Under the pieces are notes generated by a model, which had not been told where the DNA came from, searched no databases, and saw only the letters and a program-made list of their open reading frames with translations. 38,585 bases of DNA. It comes from Chloroflexota bacterium. GTDB lineage: Bacteria; Chloroflexota; Anaerolineae; Anaerolineales; UBA11858. This document shows, one piece after another, positions 3,539 through 38,585 of the stretch. A program made the translations under genes and the position numbers. Location: the NCBI GenBank assembly GCA_030666985.1, contig DAOUWT010000002.1:1-38585 (forward strand). The letters run 5' to 3'. Numbering within the stretch: the first letter of the stretch is position 1; each line of letters begins with the position of its first letter.

Positions 3539-3892
3539 AGTGAATTGAAGAAGGTGAGAAATGTTTGTTTAGGCGGTACAAAGACGATTATACCAGTTTT
3601 GTGAACCAAGACCGAGATGGTTTATAGGAAAGGTGATTGCATTTGATATTGTAATCATTCCCCCCCTCGGAGGCTCTACGGAGATGGGTGGGAGCGCAAG
3701 CGGCTGGGGGTCACGGTGTTGCCCAAGGGCTAGCATACAACATTCAACTTGCCGAAATTGCGCGTTAGCGTTATCATGTGTGAGTGAGATAGTACAAGTC
3801 AGGATGTTAGCGTGTGTGATCGTCCGAGAGTAGATGTTTAGCCCTGGTCGCGTGTTTCAGGTTGATAATGTTTCACGCAAAGTGAGAAAAAG

Positions 3893-4306
3893 ATGAACGA
3901 ACAAACCATAACCATAACTTTGCCGGATGCGGTTTACGACCGTGTAAGAACGACGGCTCAAGCAACTGCGCTTACTTCGGAAGAAGTCGTCAAGCAATCG
4001 GTCGTGCTTTTATTACCCGCTTTTGAAGCGGATATGACGCCGCATCTGCGTTTAAGCCTGACCAAATTTTCGCTATTGAGTGACGTGCAACTTTGGAAAA
4101 CGGCCAATTCGGTCATGAGCCACGCCCGTCAGTTGCGCTTGGAGGAATTAGCCGAATTACAAAAGCAGTGTTCGCTCACAAAAAATGAGCAGGCGGAATT
4201 GGACGATTTAATGGATGAAGCTCAATACATAATGCTGCGTAAAGCGGAAGCCCGCCGCGTTTTGGCGCAACGTGGTCACATTGTTTTCAAACCGGTTGAG
4301 CTTTAA
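3893..4306 (+). CDS. small hypothetical protein with ribbon-helix-helix-like N-terminus, partner of the downstream HNH gene
   Basis: 137-aa ORF. The N-terminus 'ITITLPDAVYDRVRTTAQATALTSEEVVKQSV' has the beta-strand/helix pattern typical of RHH/CopG-type proteins. The C-terminal half is coiled-coil-like. Its TAA stop is 1 nt before the ATG of the HNH gene. Confidence 0.55.
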   Translation: MNEQTITITLPDAVYDRVRTTAQATALTSEEVVKQSVVLLLPAFEADMTPHLRLSLTKFSLLSDVQLWKTANSVMSHARQLRLEELAELQKQCSLTKNEQAELDDLMDEAQYIMLRKAEARRVLAQRGHIVFKPVEL

Positions 4307-4307
4307 G

Positions 4308-4727
4308 ATGTCCGCGTCTGTCGAATTGCGAACGTTGCTCGAAAAGCGGGACGAAAAACGTTGTTCGTACTGTCTTACTAGCGAGGATAACTGTGGTCTC
4401 AGAATGCACGTCGACCACATCGTGCCCGAATCAAGCGGCGGCCGCACGACTCGCGAAAATCTATGTCTGGCCTGTTTTTCGTGCAACGTGCATAAAGGAG
4501 CGAAACAGACCTGGCGAGACCCCTTGACTCGGGAAATCACGCCTTTGTTTCATCCACTGCAACAAGATTGGAATGAGCATTTTTGCTGGGATGAAAGTAA
4601 AATCAAAATAATAGGATTGTCACCTTGTGGAAGAGCGACGATCTCAGCCTTAAAGATGAACAATTCCACGGTAGTAAATGCCCGAAGGCGTTGGGTCAGT
4701 GCTGGTTGGCATCCACCCGAATTATGA
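4308..4727 (+). CDS. HNH endonuclease (small stand-alone type)
   Basis: HNH motif 'CSYC...HVDHIVPESSGGRTTRENLCLACFSCNVHKG'. I chose ATG 4308 because it follows the upstream stop in the 'TAAGATG' arrangement. The ORF track extends to 4272. Confidence 0.85.
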   Translation: MSASVELRTLLEKRDEKRCSYCLTSEDNCGLRMHVDHIVPESSGGRTTRENLCLACFSCNVHKGAKQTWRDPLTREITPLFHPLQQDWNEHFCWDESKIKIIGLSPCGRATISALKMNNSTVVNARRRWVSAGWHPPEL

Positions 4728-8664: not shown

Positions 8665-8790
8665 CTAAGTCACAAAAGGGCATCATCACCCGTAATTTAA
8701 TTGGCATAGATTCTACCACGCAGAATAAGCCGATTCCATTTGACATTTGTTAACTCTCTTGCCTTGTGGATCGTTGGCTCTTTGGGGTTT

Positions 8791-8849
8791 CGTGATGCGC
8801 GGTGCGTGATGCGTGAAGCGTGAGGCGTGAGGCGTGAGGCGTGACGAGG
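8791..8849. repeat. tandem heptamer array (CGTGATG/CGTGAAG/CGTGAGG)
   Basis: Eight in-phase heptamers in the divergent region between 7360..8664(-) and 8936..10153(+). Confidence 0.9.
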
Positions 8850-14360: not shown

Positions 14361-14452
14361 CTGAAGATTGAAGACTAAGGACAGGCGACTAAAAAGCAGG
14401 AACTGGTAAAATGTGTGTGTAGACCGTCCGCAACCCGCAACTCGAATTTCAC

Positions 14453-15574
14453 ATGGAGGCCAAAAGCAGAATGCAAAAACTCCCCTTGAATACAATCCTA
14501 GAGGGCAATTGCGTGGAGGTGTTGAAACGCTTGCCTAAGGCTTCCGTTGATCTCATCTTCGCCGACCCACCCTATAATTTGCAACTGAAAAACGAACTCT
14601 ACCGCCCGAATATGACCAAGGTTGACGCGGTGAATGATGAATGGGATCAATTTGATTCTTTTGCGGCCTACGATGAATTTAGTGAGGCTTGGCTGCGGGC
14701 CTGCAAGCGTGTTCTGAAACCGACCGGCGCAATTTGGGTGATTGGGACTTACCACAACATCTTCCGCATTGGAAAGATCATGCAAGACCTGGGCTATTGG
14801 ATGTTGAACGATGTTTTGTGGATCAAAACCAATCCCATGCCCAACTTTAGGGGAGTCAGATTCACCAACGCTCATGAAACCCTGATTTGGGCCAGCACGG
14901 GTCAGGGGGCGAGATACACCTTCAATCACCACGCCATGAAAGGCCTAAACCATGACAAGCAAATGCGCTCCGATTGGTGGTTGCTGCCATTAGCAGCCGG
15001 GGATGAACGCCTCAAGGACGAAAACGGCGTCAGAGCACACAGCACCCAAAAACCAGAAGCCCTTCTGTACCGTGTCATCTTGTCATCCACCAATCCCGGG
15101 GATGTCGTCCTTGATCCCTTTTTCGGGAGCGGGACCACCGGCGCGGTCGCTAAGAAACTGCACCGAAAATGGATCGGCATTGAGCGAGAAGCAAAATATA
15201 TCGAATTAGCTCAAAAACGCATTGACGCTGTCCAGCCCGAACCCTTCGACCAGGCCGCTTTTGACGTCAGAAGCCGCAAGAAACGCGTGCCGCGTGTCCC
15301 CTTCTCCACCCTTTTAGAAAACGGATACCTATCCCCCGGTCAAAAACTATACTTCAAGAAAGACGCAGAACGAAGCGCTACCATCAAGCCCAACGCCAAA
15401 CTCCGCACCAACGACGGCTTCGAGGGTTCCATCCACCAGGCGGGGCAACACTTCTCGAACGGGAATCCCTGCAACGGCTGGGAACACTGGTATTTAGAAA
15501 AAGAGGGGGAAATGGTGAAATTGGATCACTTCAGGGAAGCGTATCACTTGGCGAACGATATGTATAATAGATAG
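14453..15574 (+). CDS. ccrM: CcrM-like beta-class N6-adenine DNA methyltransferase (probable GANTC specificity), orphan
   Basis: Motif IV 'FADPPYN' lies N-terminal to motif I 'LDPFFGSGTTGAVA', the beta-class order. 'RFTNAHETLIWAS' and 'HSTQKPEALLYRVIL' are present. The C-terminal domain 'RVPFSTLLENGYLSPGQ...GSIHQAG...CNGWEHWY' is collinear with my recollection of Caulobacter CcrM. No restriction gene is adjacent. Confidence 0.88.
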   Translation: MEAKSRMQKLPLNTILEGNCVEVLKRLPKASVDLIFADPPYNLQLKNELYRPNMTKVDAVNDEWDQFDSFAAYDEFSEAWLRACKRVLKPTGAIWVIGTYHNIFRIGKIMQDLGYWMLNDVLWIKTNPMPNFRGVRFTNAHETLIWASTGQGARYTFNHHAMKGLNHDKQMRSDWWLLPLAAGDERLKDENGVRAHSTQKPEALLYRVILSSTNPGDVVLDPFFGSGTTGAVAKKLHRKWIGIEREAKYIELAQKRIDAVQPEPFDQAAFDVRSRKKRVPRVPFSTLLENGYLSPGQKLYFKKDAERSATIKPNAKLRTNDGFEGSIHQAGQHFSNGNPCNGWEHWYLEKEGEMVKLDHFREAYHLANDMYNR

Positions 15575-32846: not shown

Positions 32847-33030
32847 TTTGGGTCTCTGGGAACTTACGGGATAGATTTGCCAAATCGCAATTTTTCGCCA
32901 CTAACGCTTTGCGTATGTTTTACGCCGCGTGCCCATGGTATTCGTGCTAATTCGTGAAATTCGTGGCAAATGTTTGTTCAATCCCGTGAAATCCTAAAGA
33001 GCCAATATATTTTAGCAAATACCCCCACCA

Positions 33031-33115
33031 TCACCTTGGACTCCCCCACAAGCTTAGAGTGATATTCGTTCCTGGCCTTGGTTTTCAGGGCGGCGCTGCA
33101 AGTTATCGGTAGGCA
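33031..33115. repeat. copy A of a diverged ~85-bp direct repeat
   Basis: It aligns without indels to 33802-33886: TCACCTTGGACTC...CTGCAAGTTATCG, with roughly two-thirds of positions identical by eye. Confidence 0.7.
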
Positions 33116-33319
33116 TTATCTTTGAGGCAGAGCTAACTCATTTTCTCTTGCAATTCTAATTAAAAATCGCAGAGCTTCATTAACCGCCTCAGAGTCTGGA
33201 AACACATTGGCCACATCCTCTTCTAAGCGGACAGATGGCCCGAACCCCTTTCGTCCAGGCCCAACCTTTCTCACCCGCAAACTCCTCAAGTCGTATTCTG
33301 GGCGCAGTTCATCATCCAT
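33116..33319 (-). CDS. small antitoxin-like protein (orphan)
   Basis: 67 aa beginning 'MDDELRPEYDLRSLRVRKVGPGRKGF...', an N-terminal pattern I associate with small type II antitoxins. A 24-codon mini-ORF (33319..33393) overlaps its ATG as TAATG. Confidence 0.5.
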   Translation of the reverse strand: MDDELRPEYDLRSLRVRKVGPGRKGFGPSVRLEEDVANVFPDSEAVNEALRFLIRIARENELALPQR

Positions 33320-33423
33320 TATTGTTTTAACCTTCTCCTTGCTAAATACACCTGCCTGTGTAATTGAAACTTAAAGTATCCATCTTGTGTCATTAGCAAA
33401 ACAGCAACCAAGTTAATTATCTG

Positions 33424-33636
33424 CTATGCCCTAAATAATTTTTCAGAAATTTCTATGTTTTGTTTAAGCAAAGAATTGACAACTTCGCTCAAAGAAAGAA
33501 CGGTATCTTTATTTTGGATATTTTCGATAAAAAAGTCTTTAACCTCTTTATCTAAATAGATTGGAATATCTAATTCCTCTATTGGTCTATAAAATTTGCC
33601 TTGTTCTGCATTTGTGAAATCGTATTCTTTTTTCAT
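33424..33636 (-). CDS. small antitoxin-like protein
   Basis: 70 aa counted from ATG 33636: 'MKKEYDFTNAEQGKFYRPIEELDIPIYLDKEVKDFF...'. The 'KEYDF..A..GKFY' start followed by 'P(I/V)YLD' is typical of a widespread small antitoxin-like family. Confidence 0.55.
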   Translation of the reverse strand: MKKEYDFTNAEQGKFYRPIEELDIPIYLDKEVKDFFIENIQNKDTVLSLSEVVNSLLKQNIEISEKLFRA

Positions 33637-33697
33637 TTTGGACACCTTTTTTGATATGCCTGATTTTCTCTTTATTTGTATCCCATTCAAATTTCAC
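33587..33697 (-). pseudogene. truncated BrnT/DUF497-like toxin remnant
   Basis: Reading from GTG 33697 gives '(M)KFEWDTNKEKIRHIKKGV', matching the BrnT N-terminal signature (FEWDxxK...N..KHGV). The frame then runs out of phase into the antitoxin-like gene and stops after 36 codons. Confidence 0.4.
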
Positions 33698-33801
33698 AGC
33701 ATGTAGTCCTCAAGAGGAGCATCAAAGTCAGCTGGCATTTCAACAAGCCCTCGCAAATTTTGTCTTAGATAACTGAAGTATACCATAGGTAAATGTTACT
33801 T

Positions 33802-33886
33802 TCACCTTGGACTCTCCCATCATTTCAAAGTGGTATTTATCCCTATTCTTGTTTTCCAGGACAGCACTGCAAGTTATCGTTACCAT
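33802..33886. repeat. copy B of the diverged ~85-bp direct repeat
   Basis: See 33031..33115. It lies between the Toprim-like gene and the BrnT remnant. Confidence 0.7.
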
Positions 33887-34054
33887 CCACGAATTAGAGC
33901 ACGAATACTCGAATGGGTGGCCGTACAGTATTCGTTTTGCTCTGCACGCCCTTGGCGTTCGTGTTTTATTCGAGGATGGCCTCCTGCCCCAGCAGACTAC
34001 CACTCTGAGATACCCTGCTATTACTTTTGCCCCCTATTGGCTTAGTACGACAGT

Positions 34055-34684
34055 TTATGCATTAAACAACCGGTTCAGCCAATCCACAAACTTTTGTGCA
34101 AGCGGCTGATTATGTTGCAATGCATGTGCAGTTATGGCTAACCCCATAGGCTGACCAGGTGTTTCTTGCCAAGCCAACCATGTATGGATAAAAGCTTTCT
34201 GGTGATGCAAAGACGAATACCTGTTCAGATTTTCGTTTTCAATTTCCCGCAAAATATCTTCGGCTTTGGGTTTCAGGTCATCGTCATCTGGGATTAATTC
34301 TGCGACAAAGTCTTCCAACATTCCTGGTAAATGATTGTTCGGCATTATCCAAATGCCAACTCGAGGCATTTGATCCGATTCAATGATAGTCCCATTTGGA
34401 TTAGGCCCATCAGGAAGGTTTGAATACCCAGCCTGTCTCAAACGCTCACATACAGCGTCCCATCTACTCTCTATATCCTGGTCTGCATCCAGAACAATGC
34501 CAAGAGCATTGAGTTTAGACTGCTTTAGCCTAACCGCAATGCCTTCAAGCAAAGCATCTACACCGCCTTTATCTTCCCCTGGTTCCTCGACAGAAAAATT
34601 TTCCAGCACTTGATATTGCTCACATAAAGCCCAAACAACATGTTTATCATTTTTACCTTCAACGAGCAGTTCTGCGTTTAGCAT
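34055..34684 (-). CDS. small Toprim-like protein (DUF4276/DUF3226/DUF4435-like; family unresolved)
   Basis: 209 aa. The N-terminal 'AELLVEGKNDKHVV' fits the Toprim Glu motif, and 'GIVLDADQD' about 55 aa later fits DxD. Its ATG overlaps the ATPase stop as TGATG. Confidence 0.7.
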   Translation of the reverse strand: MLNAELLVEGKNDKHVVWALCEQYQVLENFSVEEPGEDKGGVDALLEGIAVRLKQSKLNALGIVLDADQDIESRWDAVCERLRQAGYSNLPDGPNPNGTIIESDQMPRVGIWIMPNNHLPGMLEDFVAELIPDDDDLKPKAEDILREIENENLNRYSSLHHQKAFIHTWLAWQETPGQPMGLAITAHALQHNQPLAQKFVDWLNRLFNA

Positions 34685-35778
34685 CAGCGCACCTCTATAT
34701 CTTGTTCTACAGCAATGCTCAATTCATCAACGGAGTAAGGCACTTCTCCAATCTGCTCGTCTATTCTCTCGATGCGAATTAACCGACCAAAATCAGGATT
34801 TTCAAATTCAACAAGTGCTTCCTGGAAAGCTTTAACGCAATCCCAGCTATGAGTAGTAGCAAAAACTTGTACATCTTGTTTGGATGCTGTCTGAAAAATT
34901 AGTCGCCACATATCCTTGAGTGTTGCATAATAAAGCCCTGTATCTATTTCGTCAACAAGCAATGTTCCGCTGCCAACATTCACTAACGAGGCTATTATTG
35001 CCAAAATACGCCGCATTCCATCCCCCATACTCCCAAGGGGTATTGGTTCATCTTTATCATCCAACTTAAGTAGGACTCCACTATTAGAGGTCTGCCGGCT
35101 TGTAAAACTGAGCCGCTTTACTTTTGGTTCAAGTATTTGTAGAGCATCAACAATCTTATCCTCTTTTTCTGTCAAGGTAATACCATCCCATAGAACTGCC
35201 AACTCATCGTATCCAAGATGATTTGTAGTAATCAGTTTGGAAATCTCAGATGGTATGGGAGTATTCCTTGTATACATCCTGTGGTCAGGAATTAGGCCAT
35301 CTACATCTAAAAGCAATGATGATTCTTTCTTTTTTGGAGATGTAAATTTAGAGTGTTCAAAAACAAGGCGATGCTCAAGTTCTCCTATTTCCGAGCCATC
35401 TTCGTCAAACAAGGATAGCTGAGTAGTATCTTCTTCATGCAAGGAAATCTTAAGACTAATTTTCTGATCATTCTTTGAAGAAATTATAATCGCTTGTCCA
35501 TACTCCAGTGAATGCCCGTTAAAAATATGCGAAACTTGATAACCACCACGAGTATCTGTTTTATAACGGTTAATTATTCTTGGAATATACTCGCCTCTTT
35601 CGTGCAACAGGTGTATTAAACTTGAACGAACATCATCGCTTGTTAAAAGATGAATCGCTTCTAATAAACTGCTTTTGCCAGAATTATTCGTTCCAACAAT
35701 CAAATTCACCTTAGCCAAAGACGATATTTCAAAATCTTCAAACAATCGATATTTTTGAATTCTCAAATTATGTAACAT
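34684..35778 (-). CDS. ABC-type (AAA_21/OLD-N-terminal-like) ATPase
   Basis: 364 aa with Walker A 'IVGTNNSGKSS', a signature-like 'LGSMGDGMRR', Walker B 'TLLVDEIDTGL' and H-loop 'ATTHS'. A long insert separates Walker A from the signature, as in RecF/SMC/OLD-type ATPases. Confidence 0.85.
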   Translation of the reverse strand: MLHNLRIQKYRLFEDFEISSLAKVNLIVGTNNSGKSSLLEAIHLLTSDDVRSSLIHLLHERGEYIPRIINRYKTDTRGGYQVSHIFNGHSLEYGQAIIISSKNDQKISLKISLHEEDTTQLSLFDEDGSEIGELEHRLVFEHSKFTSPKKKESSLLLDVDGLIPDHRMYTRNTPIPSEISKLITTNHLGYDELAVLWDGITLTEKEDKIVDALQILEPKVKRLSFTSRQTSNSGVLLKLDDKDEPIPLGSMGDGMRRILAIIASLVNVGSGTLLVDEIDTGLYYATLKDMWRLIFQTASKQDVQVFATTHSWDCVKAFQEALVEFENPDFGRLIRIERIDEQIGEVPYSVDELSIAVEQDIEVR

Positions 35779-35994
35779 GTGAATTTTCCCTATATCTAAA
35801 ATTGTCTTCCATTATTTAATCTATACTAGTGTACCAGATTTTCTAATTTTTGTTGTACTAGAAAAAATTCGGTATAATACTTCTACGAGTCATTTTCAAA
35901 TCACTTCCTATCACCTACGCACCCACAACATTCTCTTTGTAGTATAAGCCATTTCCAATCCAACTGTCAAGCGACTAATCCCCGAGGCCAACCC

Positions 35995-38585
35995 ATGCCC
36001 CGCTCCCCCCTCACACACCTCAGAAACCTCATACTCCTCACATCCCTCACACTCCTCATCCTCACCCCCGCCCACGCCGCCACCACCTGGCAAGAGGACT
36101 TCAACGCCCCCTCCCTTGACGGCAAAGGCGCCACGGGCAGCACCATCGACATGGACGGCGTCACCAAATGGAACATCGACATCAGCGGCGCCGACCTGAG
36201 CGCCACAACCGACTGGTTCCGCGTGGAGGGCGAAGTTTTCGAGGGCCGCGACCTGGACGGCCCCGCCGTGTGGGAATCGGAATCAATTGACATTTCGGGC
36301 CTCTCCGGCGTCAGCTTTAGCCTGGATGCCGCAGAATCGGGCGACCACGAAAGCGATGACTACTTTGACGTTTATTACAGTCTCGACGGCGGGGCGTTCA
36401 CCCTCATTGCCAACTGGAACGGGCTGGGGAGCGGCACTCACACTCTCGTGGGCGACATCCCCGACGACGGCGACTGGGGCACAACCACCATCACCCAGGC
36501 CGTATCCGGCAGCACGCTAAAAATCAAGGTGGTGATGAAAAATGATGCCGGCACCGAATATCTCCGTCTGGACAATGTGCAAGTTCTGGATGACACCACC
36601 CTCACCCCCATTTACGACATCCAGCACACCACCGACCCCAGCGGCGACTCTCCCCTCGCGGGGCAAAATGTCACCACCTCTGGCGTGGTCACAGCCGCTT
36701 TTGGGGATGGCTACTTCATTGAAGACCCGGCCGGCGGCGCCTGGAACGGCCTCTTCGTTTACGACCAAGCGCTCATGAGCGCCGCCAACCCTCCCACGCG
36801 GGGCGACCTCGTCCAGGTTACGGGAACAGTGGCGGAATTCAACAACCTCACCGAGCTGACCACCATCACCGGCTATACCCTTGTCTCCAGCGGCAACCCC
36901 CTCCCCGTGCCGGAAATTCTATCCACCGGGGATGTGGCCCAAGAGCAGTGGGAGGGCGTCCTCGTCCGCGTGGAAGTTGTCACCGTCACCGACCATAATC
37001 TGGGATTTGGCGAATGGGCCATTAACGACGGGAGCGGCAATATCCGCGTGGACGACAAGGGCAGCTACACCTACACCCCCGTCACCGGCGACACGCTCCA
37101 AAGCCTCACCGGCCCCGTGGACTACACCTACGATAACTTCAAAATTCAGCCCCGCGACGATGCAGACATCCAACCCGCCGCCAACTTGGTCATTAACGAA
37201 ATTCACGCCGACCCGGCCCCCGATTTGCCCGGCGACGCCAACGGGGATGGTGTGCGGAGCAGCAGCGCAGACGAATTTGTAGAGATCGTCAACAACTCGG
37301 TTTGGGATGTGGATATTTCGGGCTGGACATTGGCGGATGCCTCCGCCGTGCGGCACACCTTCCCGCCGGGGACGGTTATCCCTAGCCACTGCGGGATAGT
37401 TATCTTTGGGGGAGGAACTCCCACGGGAGATTTCGGCCAATCCCTCACGCAAACGGCCAGCAGCGGCGCCCTGAGTCTCAACAACGGCGGGGACACTGTC
37501 ACCCTCAACGATGGGGGTGGCGACCACGCTGTGGTTACGTTTGGCGCTGAGGGTGGGGACAACCAAGCCCTTAGCCGCTACCCAGATGTGACCGCGCCTC
37601 TGTTTTGGAAACACGCCGAAATCAAGGCATCCGCCGGGGCACTTTTCTCCCCCGGGACGATGGTGGACGGTACCCCCTTTGTGGGATGCTCATCCCCCGG
37701 CTACACGCCCATCTACGAGGTTCAATATCCCCCCGACACGAACGGCGACTCCCCCCTGGCGGGGCAAAGCGTGACCACCGGGGGCATAGTCACGGCCACG
37801 TTTTACAGCGGATATTTCGTTCAGGACTCCGGCGGAGGGGCGTGGAGCGGGGTGTGGGTGCATGACGGTGTCAACGTTCCCCACGTGGGAGACCGCGTGC
37901 GGCTAACCGGAACCGTGGACGAATACTTCGCCCTCACCGAGTTGGATTCCATCTCCGATTTCGAGATTTTATCCAATGACAACGCCCTCCCCGCACCCGA
38001 AGTTTTGCCCACCGGGGACGTCTCCCAAGAAAGGTGGGAGGGCGTGTTGGTGCGCGTTGAAACAGTCACCGTCACCGATGCGGATTTAGGCTTTGACGAA
38101 TGGGCCGTCAGTGATGGGGGCGGCGATGCGCGGATTGGCGATAAAGGCACTTACACCTACACGCCCGCCAACGGCGATAACCTGGATGCTGTGACCGGGC
38201 CGCTAGACTATTCTTATGGGAATTTCAAGATTCAGCCTCGAAATGATGGGGACATTCATCTGCCGGCCACCGTGATAATAAATGAGGTCGATGTTGACCA
38301 AGCCGGGGTTGATGGAGCTGAATTTATAGAACTATATGATGGCGGTGAAGGAAATACCGATTTAAGCGGCATGGTCATGGTGTTTTTCAATGGCTCCGAC
38401 GATGCCTCTTACCGCTCCATTGACCTGGATTTGTGGAGCACGGGTTCTACGGGCTATTTTGTGGTTTGTGGAAATAAAGCCAACGTCCCCCATTGTGATT
38501 TAGAATCTGTTTCAAACTTGCTCCAAAATGGACCGGATGCCGTGGCCCTTTACGAGGGCGATGCGGCCGATTTTCCCAACGATAC
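35995..38585 (+). CDS. secreted multidomain protein with duplicated OB-fold-like + lamin-tail-domain modules (ExeM/NucH-like N-terminal architecture), partial
   Basis: This open frame runs from ATG 35995 to the window end and is not in the ORF track because it has no stop. The signal peptide is 'LILLTSLTLLILTPAHA'. Two modules begin 'TPIYDIQ...SPLAGQNVTTSGVVTA' and 'TPIYEVQ...SPLAGQSVTTGGIVTA'. Each is followed by an LTD-like segment ('LVINEIHADP...DEFVEIVN...DISGWTL' and 'VIINEVDVDQ...AEFIELYD'). Confidence 0.85.
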   Translation, partial: MPRSPLTHLRNLILLTSLTLLILTPAHAATTWQEDFNAPSLDGKGATGSTIDMDGVTKWNIDISGADLSATTDWFRVEGEVFEGRDLDGPAVWESESIDISGLSGVSFSLDAAESGDHESDDYFDVYYSLDGGAFTLIANWNGLGSGTHTLVGDIPDDGDWGTTTITQAVSGSTLKIKVVMKNDAGTEYLRLDNVQVLDDTTLTPIYDIQHTTDPSGDSPLAGQNVTTSGVVTAAFGDGYFIEDPAGGAWNGLFVYDQALMSAANPPTRGDLVQVTGTVAEFNNLTELTTITGYTLVSSGNPLPVPEILSTGDVAQEQWEGVLVRVEVVTVTDHNLGFGEWAINDGSGNIRVDDKGSYTYTPVTGDTLQSLTGPVDYTYDNFKIQPRDDADIQPAANLVINEIHADPAPDLPGDANGDGVRSSSADEFVEIVNNSVWDVDISGWTLADASAVRHTFPPGTVIPSHCGIVIFGGGTPTGDFGQSLTQTASSGALSLNNGGDTVTLNDGGGDHAVVTFGAEGGDNQALSRYPDVTAPLFWKHAEIKASAGALFSPGTMVDGTPFVGCSSPGYTPIYEVQYPPDTNGDSPLAGQSVTTGGIVTATFYSGYFVQDSGGGAWSGVWVHDGVNVPHVGDRVRLTGTVDEYFALTELDSISDFEILSNDNALPAPEVLPTGDVSQERWEGVLVRVETVTVTDADLGFDEWAVSDGGGDARIGDKGTYTYTPANGDNLDAVTGPLDYSYGNFKIQPRNDGDIHLPATVIINEVDVDQAGVDGAEFIELYDGGEGNTDLSGMVMVFFNGSDDASYRSIDLDLWSTGSTGYFVVCGNKANVPHCDLESVSNLLQNGPDAVALYEGDAADFPND

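Follow-up and report, generated by a model that had tools for sequence, protein, structure and literature searches.

A pair of overlapping genes in the genome of a Chloroflexota bacterium (Anaerolineae, Anaerolineales, UBA11858) raises the question of whether it encodes an anti-phage system and, if so, of which family. The pair occupies positions 34055 to 35778, on the minus strand, of a 38,585-nucleotide stretch of contig DAOUWT010000002.1 (assembly GCA_030666985.1), hereafter called the window. A preliminary description, made from the sequence alone, had read the upstream gene (gene A) as an ATPase and the downstream gene (gene B) as a small Toprim-like protein, together forming a candidate defence module. 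We found that A and B are genuine genes rather than chance open reading frames (ORFs), and that the pair is a sound phage-defence candidate, already catalogued and nothing new in kind. The product of gene A is presumed to be the sensor and regulator, and that of gene B the nuclease effector. The pair is best described as a split, minimal OLD-like module.

Two coupled genes of the PDC-M38 family

Gene A (34684..35778, minus strand) encodes a 364-amino-acid (aa) ATP-binding cassette (ABC) ATPase of the AAA_15/AAA_21 type, as established from the ORF list and from Pfam and PADLOC searches. Gene B (34055..34684, minus strand) encodes a 209-aa DUF3226 protein with a predicted Toprim domain followed by a helical domain. 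Both ORFs and their TGATG overlap were present exactly as first described, and all the motifs quoted in the preliminary description were located, with their positions checked by translation. The stop codon TGA of A (34686-34684) and the start codon ATG of B (34684-34682) have base 34684 in common. The junction GAGGTGCGCTGATG (34682..34695, minus strand), read on that strand as GAG GTG CGC TGA TG, carries a Shine-Dalgarno-like GAGGTG in the last codons of A, followed by TGATG, an arrangement expected for translational coupling. The C-terminal residues IEVR of A (34687-34698) are near-invariant among A homologues. Their conservation may stem from a joint constraint on protein and RNA, because the GAG GTG codons double as the Shine-Dalgarno sequence of B.

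The family of the pair, which the preliminary description had left unresolved, could be assigned. The best PADLOC match of A was PDLC04611 (PDC-M38A; 1.9e-89, 298.8 bits), which extends over residues 1-364 and all 383 model positions. The best match of B, which lies adjacent to A on the same strand with the one-base overlap, was PDLC04624 (PDC-M38B; 7.4e-74, residues 2-208). B also matches DUF3226 (PF11536), one of the families proposed for checking at the outset, at 3.1e-77 (259.5 bits against a cut-off of 27) over model positions 3-208 of 208. It matches no other Pfam family, and all 42 aligned relatives match DUF3226 too. NCBIfam holds no specific model for A or B. PDC-M38 belongs to a set of 145 phage defence candidates (PDCs) drawn from cassettes that lie within BREX, DISARM or type I restriction-modification (RM) loci (Payne et al. 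2024, bioRxiv 10.1101/2024.01.29.577857), and the supplementary table of that study gives it two cassettes (Payne et al. 2024). The gene order and the two-gene cassette are the same in the window, and no difference was seen at the family level. The pair had been suspected to be a distinct, poorly described minimal variant; since DUF3226 and PDC-M38 are already catalogued, it is not a newly recognised one. In a second PDC-M38A model, PDLC04607, which has 715 positions, the alignment with the window ATPase is limited to positions 385-673, so some PDC-M38A proteins must have about 380 additional aa at the N-terminus.

To describe the conservation of both proteins, 82 related loci (L001-L082) from five phyla were fetched, and residue conservation was evaluated over 67 of them. 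In A, the Walker A motif or P-loop GTNNSGKSS (35668..35694, minus strand; aa 29-37, with K35) has its residues G29, N31, N32, G34 and K35 invariant in one alignment of relatives and at least 95% conserved across the 67 loci. The ABC signature LGSMGDGMRR (35008-35037; aa 248-257), Walker B LLVDEIDTGL (34933-34962; aa 273-282) and the H-loop ATTHS (34846-34860; aa 307-311) follow on the same minus strand, the block from signature to H-loop spanning 34846..35037. Within these motifs G252, G254, D276, E277, T309, H310 and S311 are conserved among relatives. Pfam assigned A to AAA_15 (8e-25) and AAA_21 (2.5e-20). An AlphaFold2 model built on 37 homologues (predicted local distance difference test, pLDDT, 84) was matched by Foldseek to the ABC heads of PtuA, Rad50, retron PtuA, GajA, Thermus (Ts) OLD and SMC, with E-values of 1e-13 to 1e-11. 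Both results agree with the ABC/AAA_21-type ATPase first proposed. When the profile of A was compared with solved structures, Ts OLD came first (3e-8), then RecF, Rad50, PtuA and GajA, with AriA at 7e-4, and the alignments were confined to the surroundings of the P-loop.

In A, the Walker A and signature motifs lie about 210 residues apart, in line with the long insertion of about 200 residues noticed earlier. Part of this stretch, aa 95-180 (35239..35496, minus strand), is hypervariable: the top-residue frequency is 0.24, the entropy 3.06 bits and the proportion of gaps 17%, against top-residue frequencies of 0.66-0.69 in the ATPase core. The insert is predicted to be rich in beta-strands, which lie at residues 96-164 in the AlphaFold2 model, and it is a candidate trigger-sensing surface.

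In B, the Toprim glutamate motif LLVEGKNDK (34643..34669, minus strand; aa 6-14) contributes E9 and D13, and the DxD motif VLDADQD (34475..34495, minus strand; aa 64-70) contributes D66 and D68. Residues E9, G10, D13 and D66 are invariant among relatives, and D68 is at least 90% conserved in close relatives, being sometimes N. The Glu and DxD residues singled out in the preliminary description are thus invariant or nearly so. Further downstream (34163..34324, minus strand), E124 in GMLEDF and residues K163, H167, W169 and Q173 of the helical-domain motif KAFIHTWLAWQ are at least 95% conserved across the 67 loci. The AlphaFold2 model of B (pLDDT 87.5, predicted template modelling score 0.84) shows a predicted beta1-alpha1-beta2-alpha2-beta3-alpha3-beta4 core followed by five helices. 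Its strands 4-7 and 60-65 precede E9 and D66-x-D68, respectively, placing the DxD at the C-terminal end of strand 60-65.

The small protein, supposed at first to be Toprim-like, models confidently, and its five best Foldseek matches among PDB structures all fall in class 2 OLD nucleases, in the C-terminal region that comprises the Toprim and helical domains (E-values 5e-3 to 2e-2, probability 0.97-0.99, template modelling (TM) scores 0.40-0.53), with AriB lower in the list. At the sequence level, OLD-like_TOPRIM_1 (PF24395) was the sole functionally meaningful Pfam family below threshold (E 0.2, in 2 of the 42 members). The LLVEGKND of B aligns with the LLVEGRHDR of AriB, which holds the catalytic E26 and D30, the B profile reaching an E-value of 1.6 against AriB in PDB; the same motif has an aligned counterpart in a DUF4435 protein from Pseudoalteromonas. 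A single-sequence search of solved structures with B returned nothing, and a comparison with a viral structure library gave no significant match. Because the links to OLD and AriB stay at the motif level, the Toprim assignment of B is supported by fold and motifs, without significant sequence-profile similarity. We predict B to be an OLD-like Toprim nuclease that has been split off and that carries a helical domain.

Relation to known ATPase-Toprim systems

Among the closest known systems are the class 2 OLD nucleases of Burkholderia pseudomallei (6NK8) and Xanthomonas campestris (6NJV, 6NJW and 6NJX). The whole of B aligns best with their C-terminal region, and A corresponds to an OLD/Rad50-type ABC head. 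However, class 2 OLD nucleases are made as one polypeptide, the pair consists of two genes, and the likeness in sequence is at motif level only. A fused OLD nuclease of class 1 or 2 was ruled out, since the two ORFs are separated by a stop codon and the best 150 representatives of the B family are all standalone proteins of 163-251 aa.

These likenesses invite the idea that A and B form a complex that restricts DNA in the manner of fused OLD or Gabija, nicking or cleaving the invading DNA under nucleotide control without B ever being released. The C-terminal regions that B resembles belong to DNases, A resembles the heads of GajA and Ts OLD, and the PDC-M38 prototypes are embedded in RM or BREX loci. 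Yet none of those 150 representatives has the two modules joined in one polypeptide, no GajB-like helicase or other partner occurs in the related loci, and none of the data point to a substrate. We consider such a permanent DNase complex improbable. Gabija itself was ruled out: GajA models match A weakly (1e-16), a helicase gene is absent from the vicinity, and the 82 loci share no third conserved gene.

PARIS offers a functional parallel. In that system AriA sequesters AriB and frees it upon sensing Ocr (PMC11464382; PMC10802264). PARIS likewise consists of two genes, the ATPase followed by the Toprim protein, with overlapping stop and start codons. The acidic set E-x3-D, D-x-D(E) and E is common to both: E9, D13, D66, D68 and E124 of B parallel E26, D30, D88, E90 and E122 of AriB (PMC11464382), a protein for which RNase M5 has been cited as a structural homologue (PMC10802264). 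There are also differences. AriA models match A at 1e-25, against 1.9e-89 for PDC-M38A, and both proteins are shorter than their counterparts (A 364 aa, AriA about 460 aa; B 209 aa, AriB about 310 aa). At the place of the coiled-coil and helical insertions of AriA (PMC11464382), the model of A shows a predicted insert rich in beta-strands. An hhalign comparison of A with an AriA-like protein covered only 76 columns, which run from the signature to the H-loop, and that of B with a DUF4435 protein covered 22 columns around the Glu motif with a probability of 3%. No match of B to DUF4435 was found at E-values up to 10 in the 42 family members, and no AriB match in PADLOC at E-values up to 1. The pair was thus ruled out as PARIS, B having no DUF4435 or AriB match and A being shorter and devoid of the coiled-coil insertions. 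A PARIS-like pair of an AAA ATPase and a DUF4435 protein was seen on the Pseudoalteromonas plasmid pTHAF3_a (L090, 1071-3385), and it has a 1-nucleotide (nt) stop/start overlap like the DUF3226 pairs.

The AbiLi model PDLC02336 was the second-best match of A after PDC-M38A, over its full length at 5.3e-62. Like B, AbiLii of the Lactococcus AbiL system resembles the OLD C-terminal region and has been reported to superimpose on 6NJV (PMC13064643). AbiL was nevertheless ruled out, because B matches no RloB (PF13707) or AbiLii model. HEC-01, an ABC ATPase with a TOPRIM protein, follows the same two-gene logic, and its HEC-01A models match A at about 1e-16; however, B matches no HEC-01B model. In the study that defined the PDCs, the fused HEC-04 protected cells and needed its Walker A and E/D/D residues (Payne et al. 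2024).

Distribution, mobility and the copy in the window

Clustering at 90% identity gave 2926 relatives of B and 4365 of A. The B family comprises about 3580 clusters at 50% identity, 972 of them with E-values of 1e-30 or lower. The closest relatives of the pair are found in metagenome-assembled genomes of Anaerolineae and other Chloroflexota. A scan of 185,579 species-representative genomes revealed a B relative in at least 589 of them, with a patchy distribution that spans Chloroflexota, many Cyanobacteria, Cytophagales and Bacteroides (Bacteroidota), Isosphaeraceae (Planctomycetota), and Gammaproteobacteria with Lamprocystis.

Across the five phyla of the locus set, an A homologue is located directly upstream of B on the same strand in 80 of the 82 loci, the exceptions being a contig end and a Tychonema locus. 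In 58 of these 80 loci the two genes overlap by 1 nt, in 6 the overlap is 4 nt, in 13 a gap of 10 nt or less separates stop and start codon, and in 3 the junction was not called. In 61 loci, a Shine-Dalgarno-like motif falls within the final 16 nt of A. The coupling proposed from the window alone is therefore a conserved property of the family (64 of 80 loci with overlapping codons). When 1272 neighbouring ORFs were clustered, A and B alone recurred. No third conserved gene, whether a helicase, HNH, reverse transcriptase (RT) or other recurring partner, was found in the neighbourhoods of the 82 loci, which extends to the family the lack of a helicase, HNH or RT partner noted beside the window pair. 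B is better conserved than A in all 66 paired loci, with a mean identity of 54% vs 42%.

The pair also has a foreign-looking composition. It is richer in AT than its flanks in 72 of the 72 loci with enough flanking sequence (mean guanine-plus-cytosine (GC) fraction 0.402 vs 0.474, a difference of 7.2 GC points). This AT-richness holds even where synteny points to long residence. Relatives were found on ten plasmids, including plasmids of 4-14 kb in which the pair is among very few cargo items. A 9.7 kb Acinetobacter plasmid carries the pair together with rep genes and tet(39); the pair is also borne by a ColE10 mobilisable plasmid of Citrobacter, 6.4 kb in length, and these two plasmids otherwise hold only rep, mob or tet(39). 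On a Plesiomonas megaplasmid the pair adjoins P2-like tail genes. A DNA search of complete Escherichia coli genomes with the variant of the Citrobacter plasmid gave no match. The AT-rich composition, the small plasmids and the P2-like tail neighbours favour a mobile accessory role.

In the window, the pair lies in an AT-rich island (about 32900-35950, no strand assigned; GC 0.40) that also contains small unassigned ORFs and is bounded by a TPR gene and a gene with lamin-tail domains. The GC fraction of the pair is 0.400 vs 0.519 in the remaining window, which bears out the island recognised in the preliminary description. About 160 nt upstream of gene A, a promoter-like site TTGACA-18-TATACT (35941..35970, minus strand) agrees with the consensus at 11 of 12 positions and is a putative promoter on the strength of that match. 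Inside the island, an 81-nt direct repeat with 75% identity (33031-33111 and 33802-33882) encodes in both copies a similar minus-strand peptide, ITCSAxLxxKxRxxYH…GESKVxV, and adjoins two small antitoxin-like ORFs of 67 and 88 aa; the ORFs there lie at 33116-33319, 33424-33690 and 33740-34003, all on the minus strand. The pair had been said to sit beside decayed toxin-antitoxin (TA) genes. The two antitoxin-like ORFs and the duplicated remnant fit that label; however, no Pfam or NCBIfam model matched any of the small ORFs beside the pair, so the label is unconfirmed, plausible but unproven.

Judged by reading the ORF translations, the remaining window carries rpoD, dnaG, groEL, a liv-type ABC transporter and RNase J, and we take it to be ordinary chromosome. 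There is no tRNA gene in the whole window, no integrase was identified among the window ORFs scanned, and the only inverted repeats flanking the island are chance-like pairs of 14-24 nt. Elsewhere in the window are an N6_N4 DNA methyltransferase fused to a RAMA domain (14423-15571, plus strand; Pfam 2.5e-65 and 1.8e-14) and a 164-aa HNH endonuclease-domain protein (4233-4724, plus strand) adjoining a weak ribbon-helix-helix-like ORF (3869-4303). The lamin-tail ORF (35986-38583, plus strand; PF00932, 2.8e-25) exceeds 866 aa, has a GC fraction of about 0.61 and runs off the window end; short C/T-rich repeats lie at its 5' end (35994-36058).

The carriage on small plasmids raises the possibility that the pair serves as a TA or addiction module and has no role dedicated to phage defence. 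B would be a Toprim toxin and A its ATPase antitoxin, and loss of the pair would kill or arrest the cell, thereby stabilising plasmids and islands. The presence of the pair among the very few cargo items of 4-14 kb plasmids, its tight coupling and foreign AT-rich composition, and the small TA-like or PIN genes that adjoin it in the window and in locus L001 are consistent with this possibility. There is precedent as well: in E. coli, AAA antitoxins neutralise TOPRIM_OLD toxins (PMC10440598), and PARIS formally counts as a type II TA system (PMC10802264). The NetFlax AAA(D29)/TOPRIM_OLD pairs share the two-gene ATPase plus Toprim logic and were validated as a toxin with a neutralising ATPase (PMC10440598), but their toxins are RloB/TOPRIM_OLD proteins and B is a DUF3226 protein. 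On the other side, the hypervariable insert of A is hard to explain if A merely neutralises a conserved partner, and an orphan B that survives in Tychonema with A deleted is weak counter-evidence. TA behaviour and defence are moreover not exclusive, as PARIS shows. Pure addiction is an unlikely account of the pair.

A possible conflict system and its genomic context

The reading we prefer, to which we give a probability of roughly 60%, is that the pair is a conflict system in which A restrains the Toprim nuclease B, senses an invader through its variable insert and, in an ATP-dependent step, releases or activates B, leading to cleavage and growth arrest. The two proteins would be produced in a constant ratio and would assemble into a complex in which the two-metal Toprim nuclease is held inactive by A. 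Through its variable beta-rich insert, A may then sense a cue derived from the invader, either a protein or a nucleic acid, and ATP binding or hydrolysis by A would release or activate B. B would cleave a conserved nucleic-acid target, which could be tRNA or another RNA, as for AriB, or DNA, as for OLD and GajA. Propagation of the phage or plasmid would be halted via growth arrest or abortive infection. This conflict-system reading starts from the folds, motifs, coupling, two-gene autonomy, rate asymmetry, foreign composition and plasmid carriage established here; we infer complex formation, sequestration, trigger and substrate by analogy with PARIS, with the AAA/TOPRIM_OLD TA pairs and with the resemblance of AbiLii to OLD.

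The genomic neighbourhood bears on this reading. We scanned 148 of the 219 distinct immediate-neighbour families of related pairs, a qualitative comparison made without a background rate. Defence genes were not enriched among these 148 neighbours in that comparison, which goes part of the way towards a refuting condition named in the preliminary description, that homologous pairs show no enrichment in defence islands. The PADLOC matches among them were two to PsyrT, two to mad2 and one to RT. Common Pfam families were histidine kinases, oxidoreductases, transporters and methyltransferases, and there is no defence-island signal because the neighbours are mostly housekeeping genes. The annotated example loci are likewise dominated by housekeeping genes, save one with a ThsB_TIR gene. 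In that contig (L086, JGI 3300077993), the ThsB_TIR-domain gene (589-981), along with several small genes that carry no annotation, is found 3.3 kb upstream of a 65%-identical pair; another contig (L087) has the same downstream flank and starts only about 440 nt upstream of the pair. The PDC-M38 prototypes sit inside BREX, DISARM or type I RM loci, whereas the window copy and most close relatives stand alone among housekeeping genes. Candidates derived from embedding have been noted to associate less with other systems than those found by defence-island enrichment (Payne et al. 2024).

Synteny with a metabolic gene was seen in Cyanobacteria. In 15 Oscillatoriales loci (Microcoleus, Oscillatoria and Tychonema), the pair is located directly downstream of cobN on the same strand. 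The cobN-linked loci are L002, L013, L018, L024, L025, L027, L028, L033, L036, L039, L042, L044, L045 and L048, with L023 at a different position; the gap between cobN and the pair is 38 nt in L002. Such stable synteny looks like vertical inheritance and is unusual in a defence system. One of these loci (L024, Tychonema bourrellyi NZ_NXIB02000122.1, 3575-9525) retains an intact B, but of A just the final 21 or so codons (8777-8839). The orphan nuclease gene is thus tolerated or silent, which speaks against unconditional toxicity of B. In this locus, cobN and B are separated by a gene for 1303 aa that runs on the opposite strand.

The housekeeping neighbours and the stable cobN synteny would also suit a nucleic-acid module of the host, acting in repair or recombination like RecF/RecR or Rad50, or in RNA maturation like RNase M5, and domesticated in some lineages. 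RecR and RNase M5 are Toprim proteins, and the N-terminus of A matches RecF and Rad50, the RecF model TIGR00611 at 4e-11. These matches, however, cover the P-loop stretch only and fall far under the family cut-offs, and in fold B comes closest to OLD nucleases rather than to RecR. The patchy distribution, the AT-richness relative to the flanks in every locus compared and the plasmid carriage also speak against a housekeeping role, which we regard as very improbable.

The absence of defence-gene enrichment, the housekeeping neighbours, the cobN synteny and the orphan B weigh against a conflict system, and so do several further points. No B relative was found in 50,697 phage records. The structural matches of B have modest E-values and TM scores, and its sequence-profile links to OLD or AriB Toprim domains are at motif level. 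The 145 PDCs were put into PADLOC by authors who call them untested, and HEC-01 gave no detectable defence in the same study (Payne et al. 2024). DUF3226, PF11536 and PDC-M38 are not mentioned in the paper texts searched, PDC-M38 appearing only in the supplementary table cited above. What stands of the defence module first proposed is the Toprim/ATPase architecture, the conserved coupling and the mobility signatures; its enrichment beside defence genes does not. Defence is inferred from that architecture, from those signatures and from analogy.

Two further possibilities concern the DUF3226 pairs as a class, and we hold them to be doubtful, at about the level of the DNase complex. The pairs could be a distinct minimal split OLD-like class, in which the beta-insert would be a new kind of invader sensor and the Toprim-plus-helical effector would have a target unlike that of AriB or OLD. 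Alternatively, the Oscillatoriales pair could have been domesticated for a host function, in keeping with its stable cobN synteny and lack of defence association.

The combination of an ABC ATPase with a Toprim nuclease is a recurring design in prokaryotic immunity, found in OLD, Gabija, PARIS, AbiL and RloAB. The authors of the PARIS work left open whether all two-gene systems of this kind act in phage defence, and what triggers them (PMC10802264). Within this design, the DUF3226 branch is large and compact (364 and 209 aa). The comparative data, namely the lack of a defence-island signal, the two-gene autonomy, the AT-richness, the carriage on small plasmids and the association of a hypervariable-insert ATPase with a conserved nuclease, provide handles for the study of this family.

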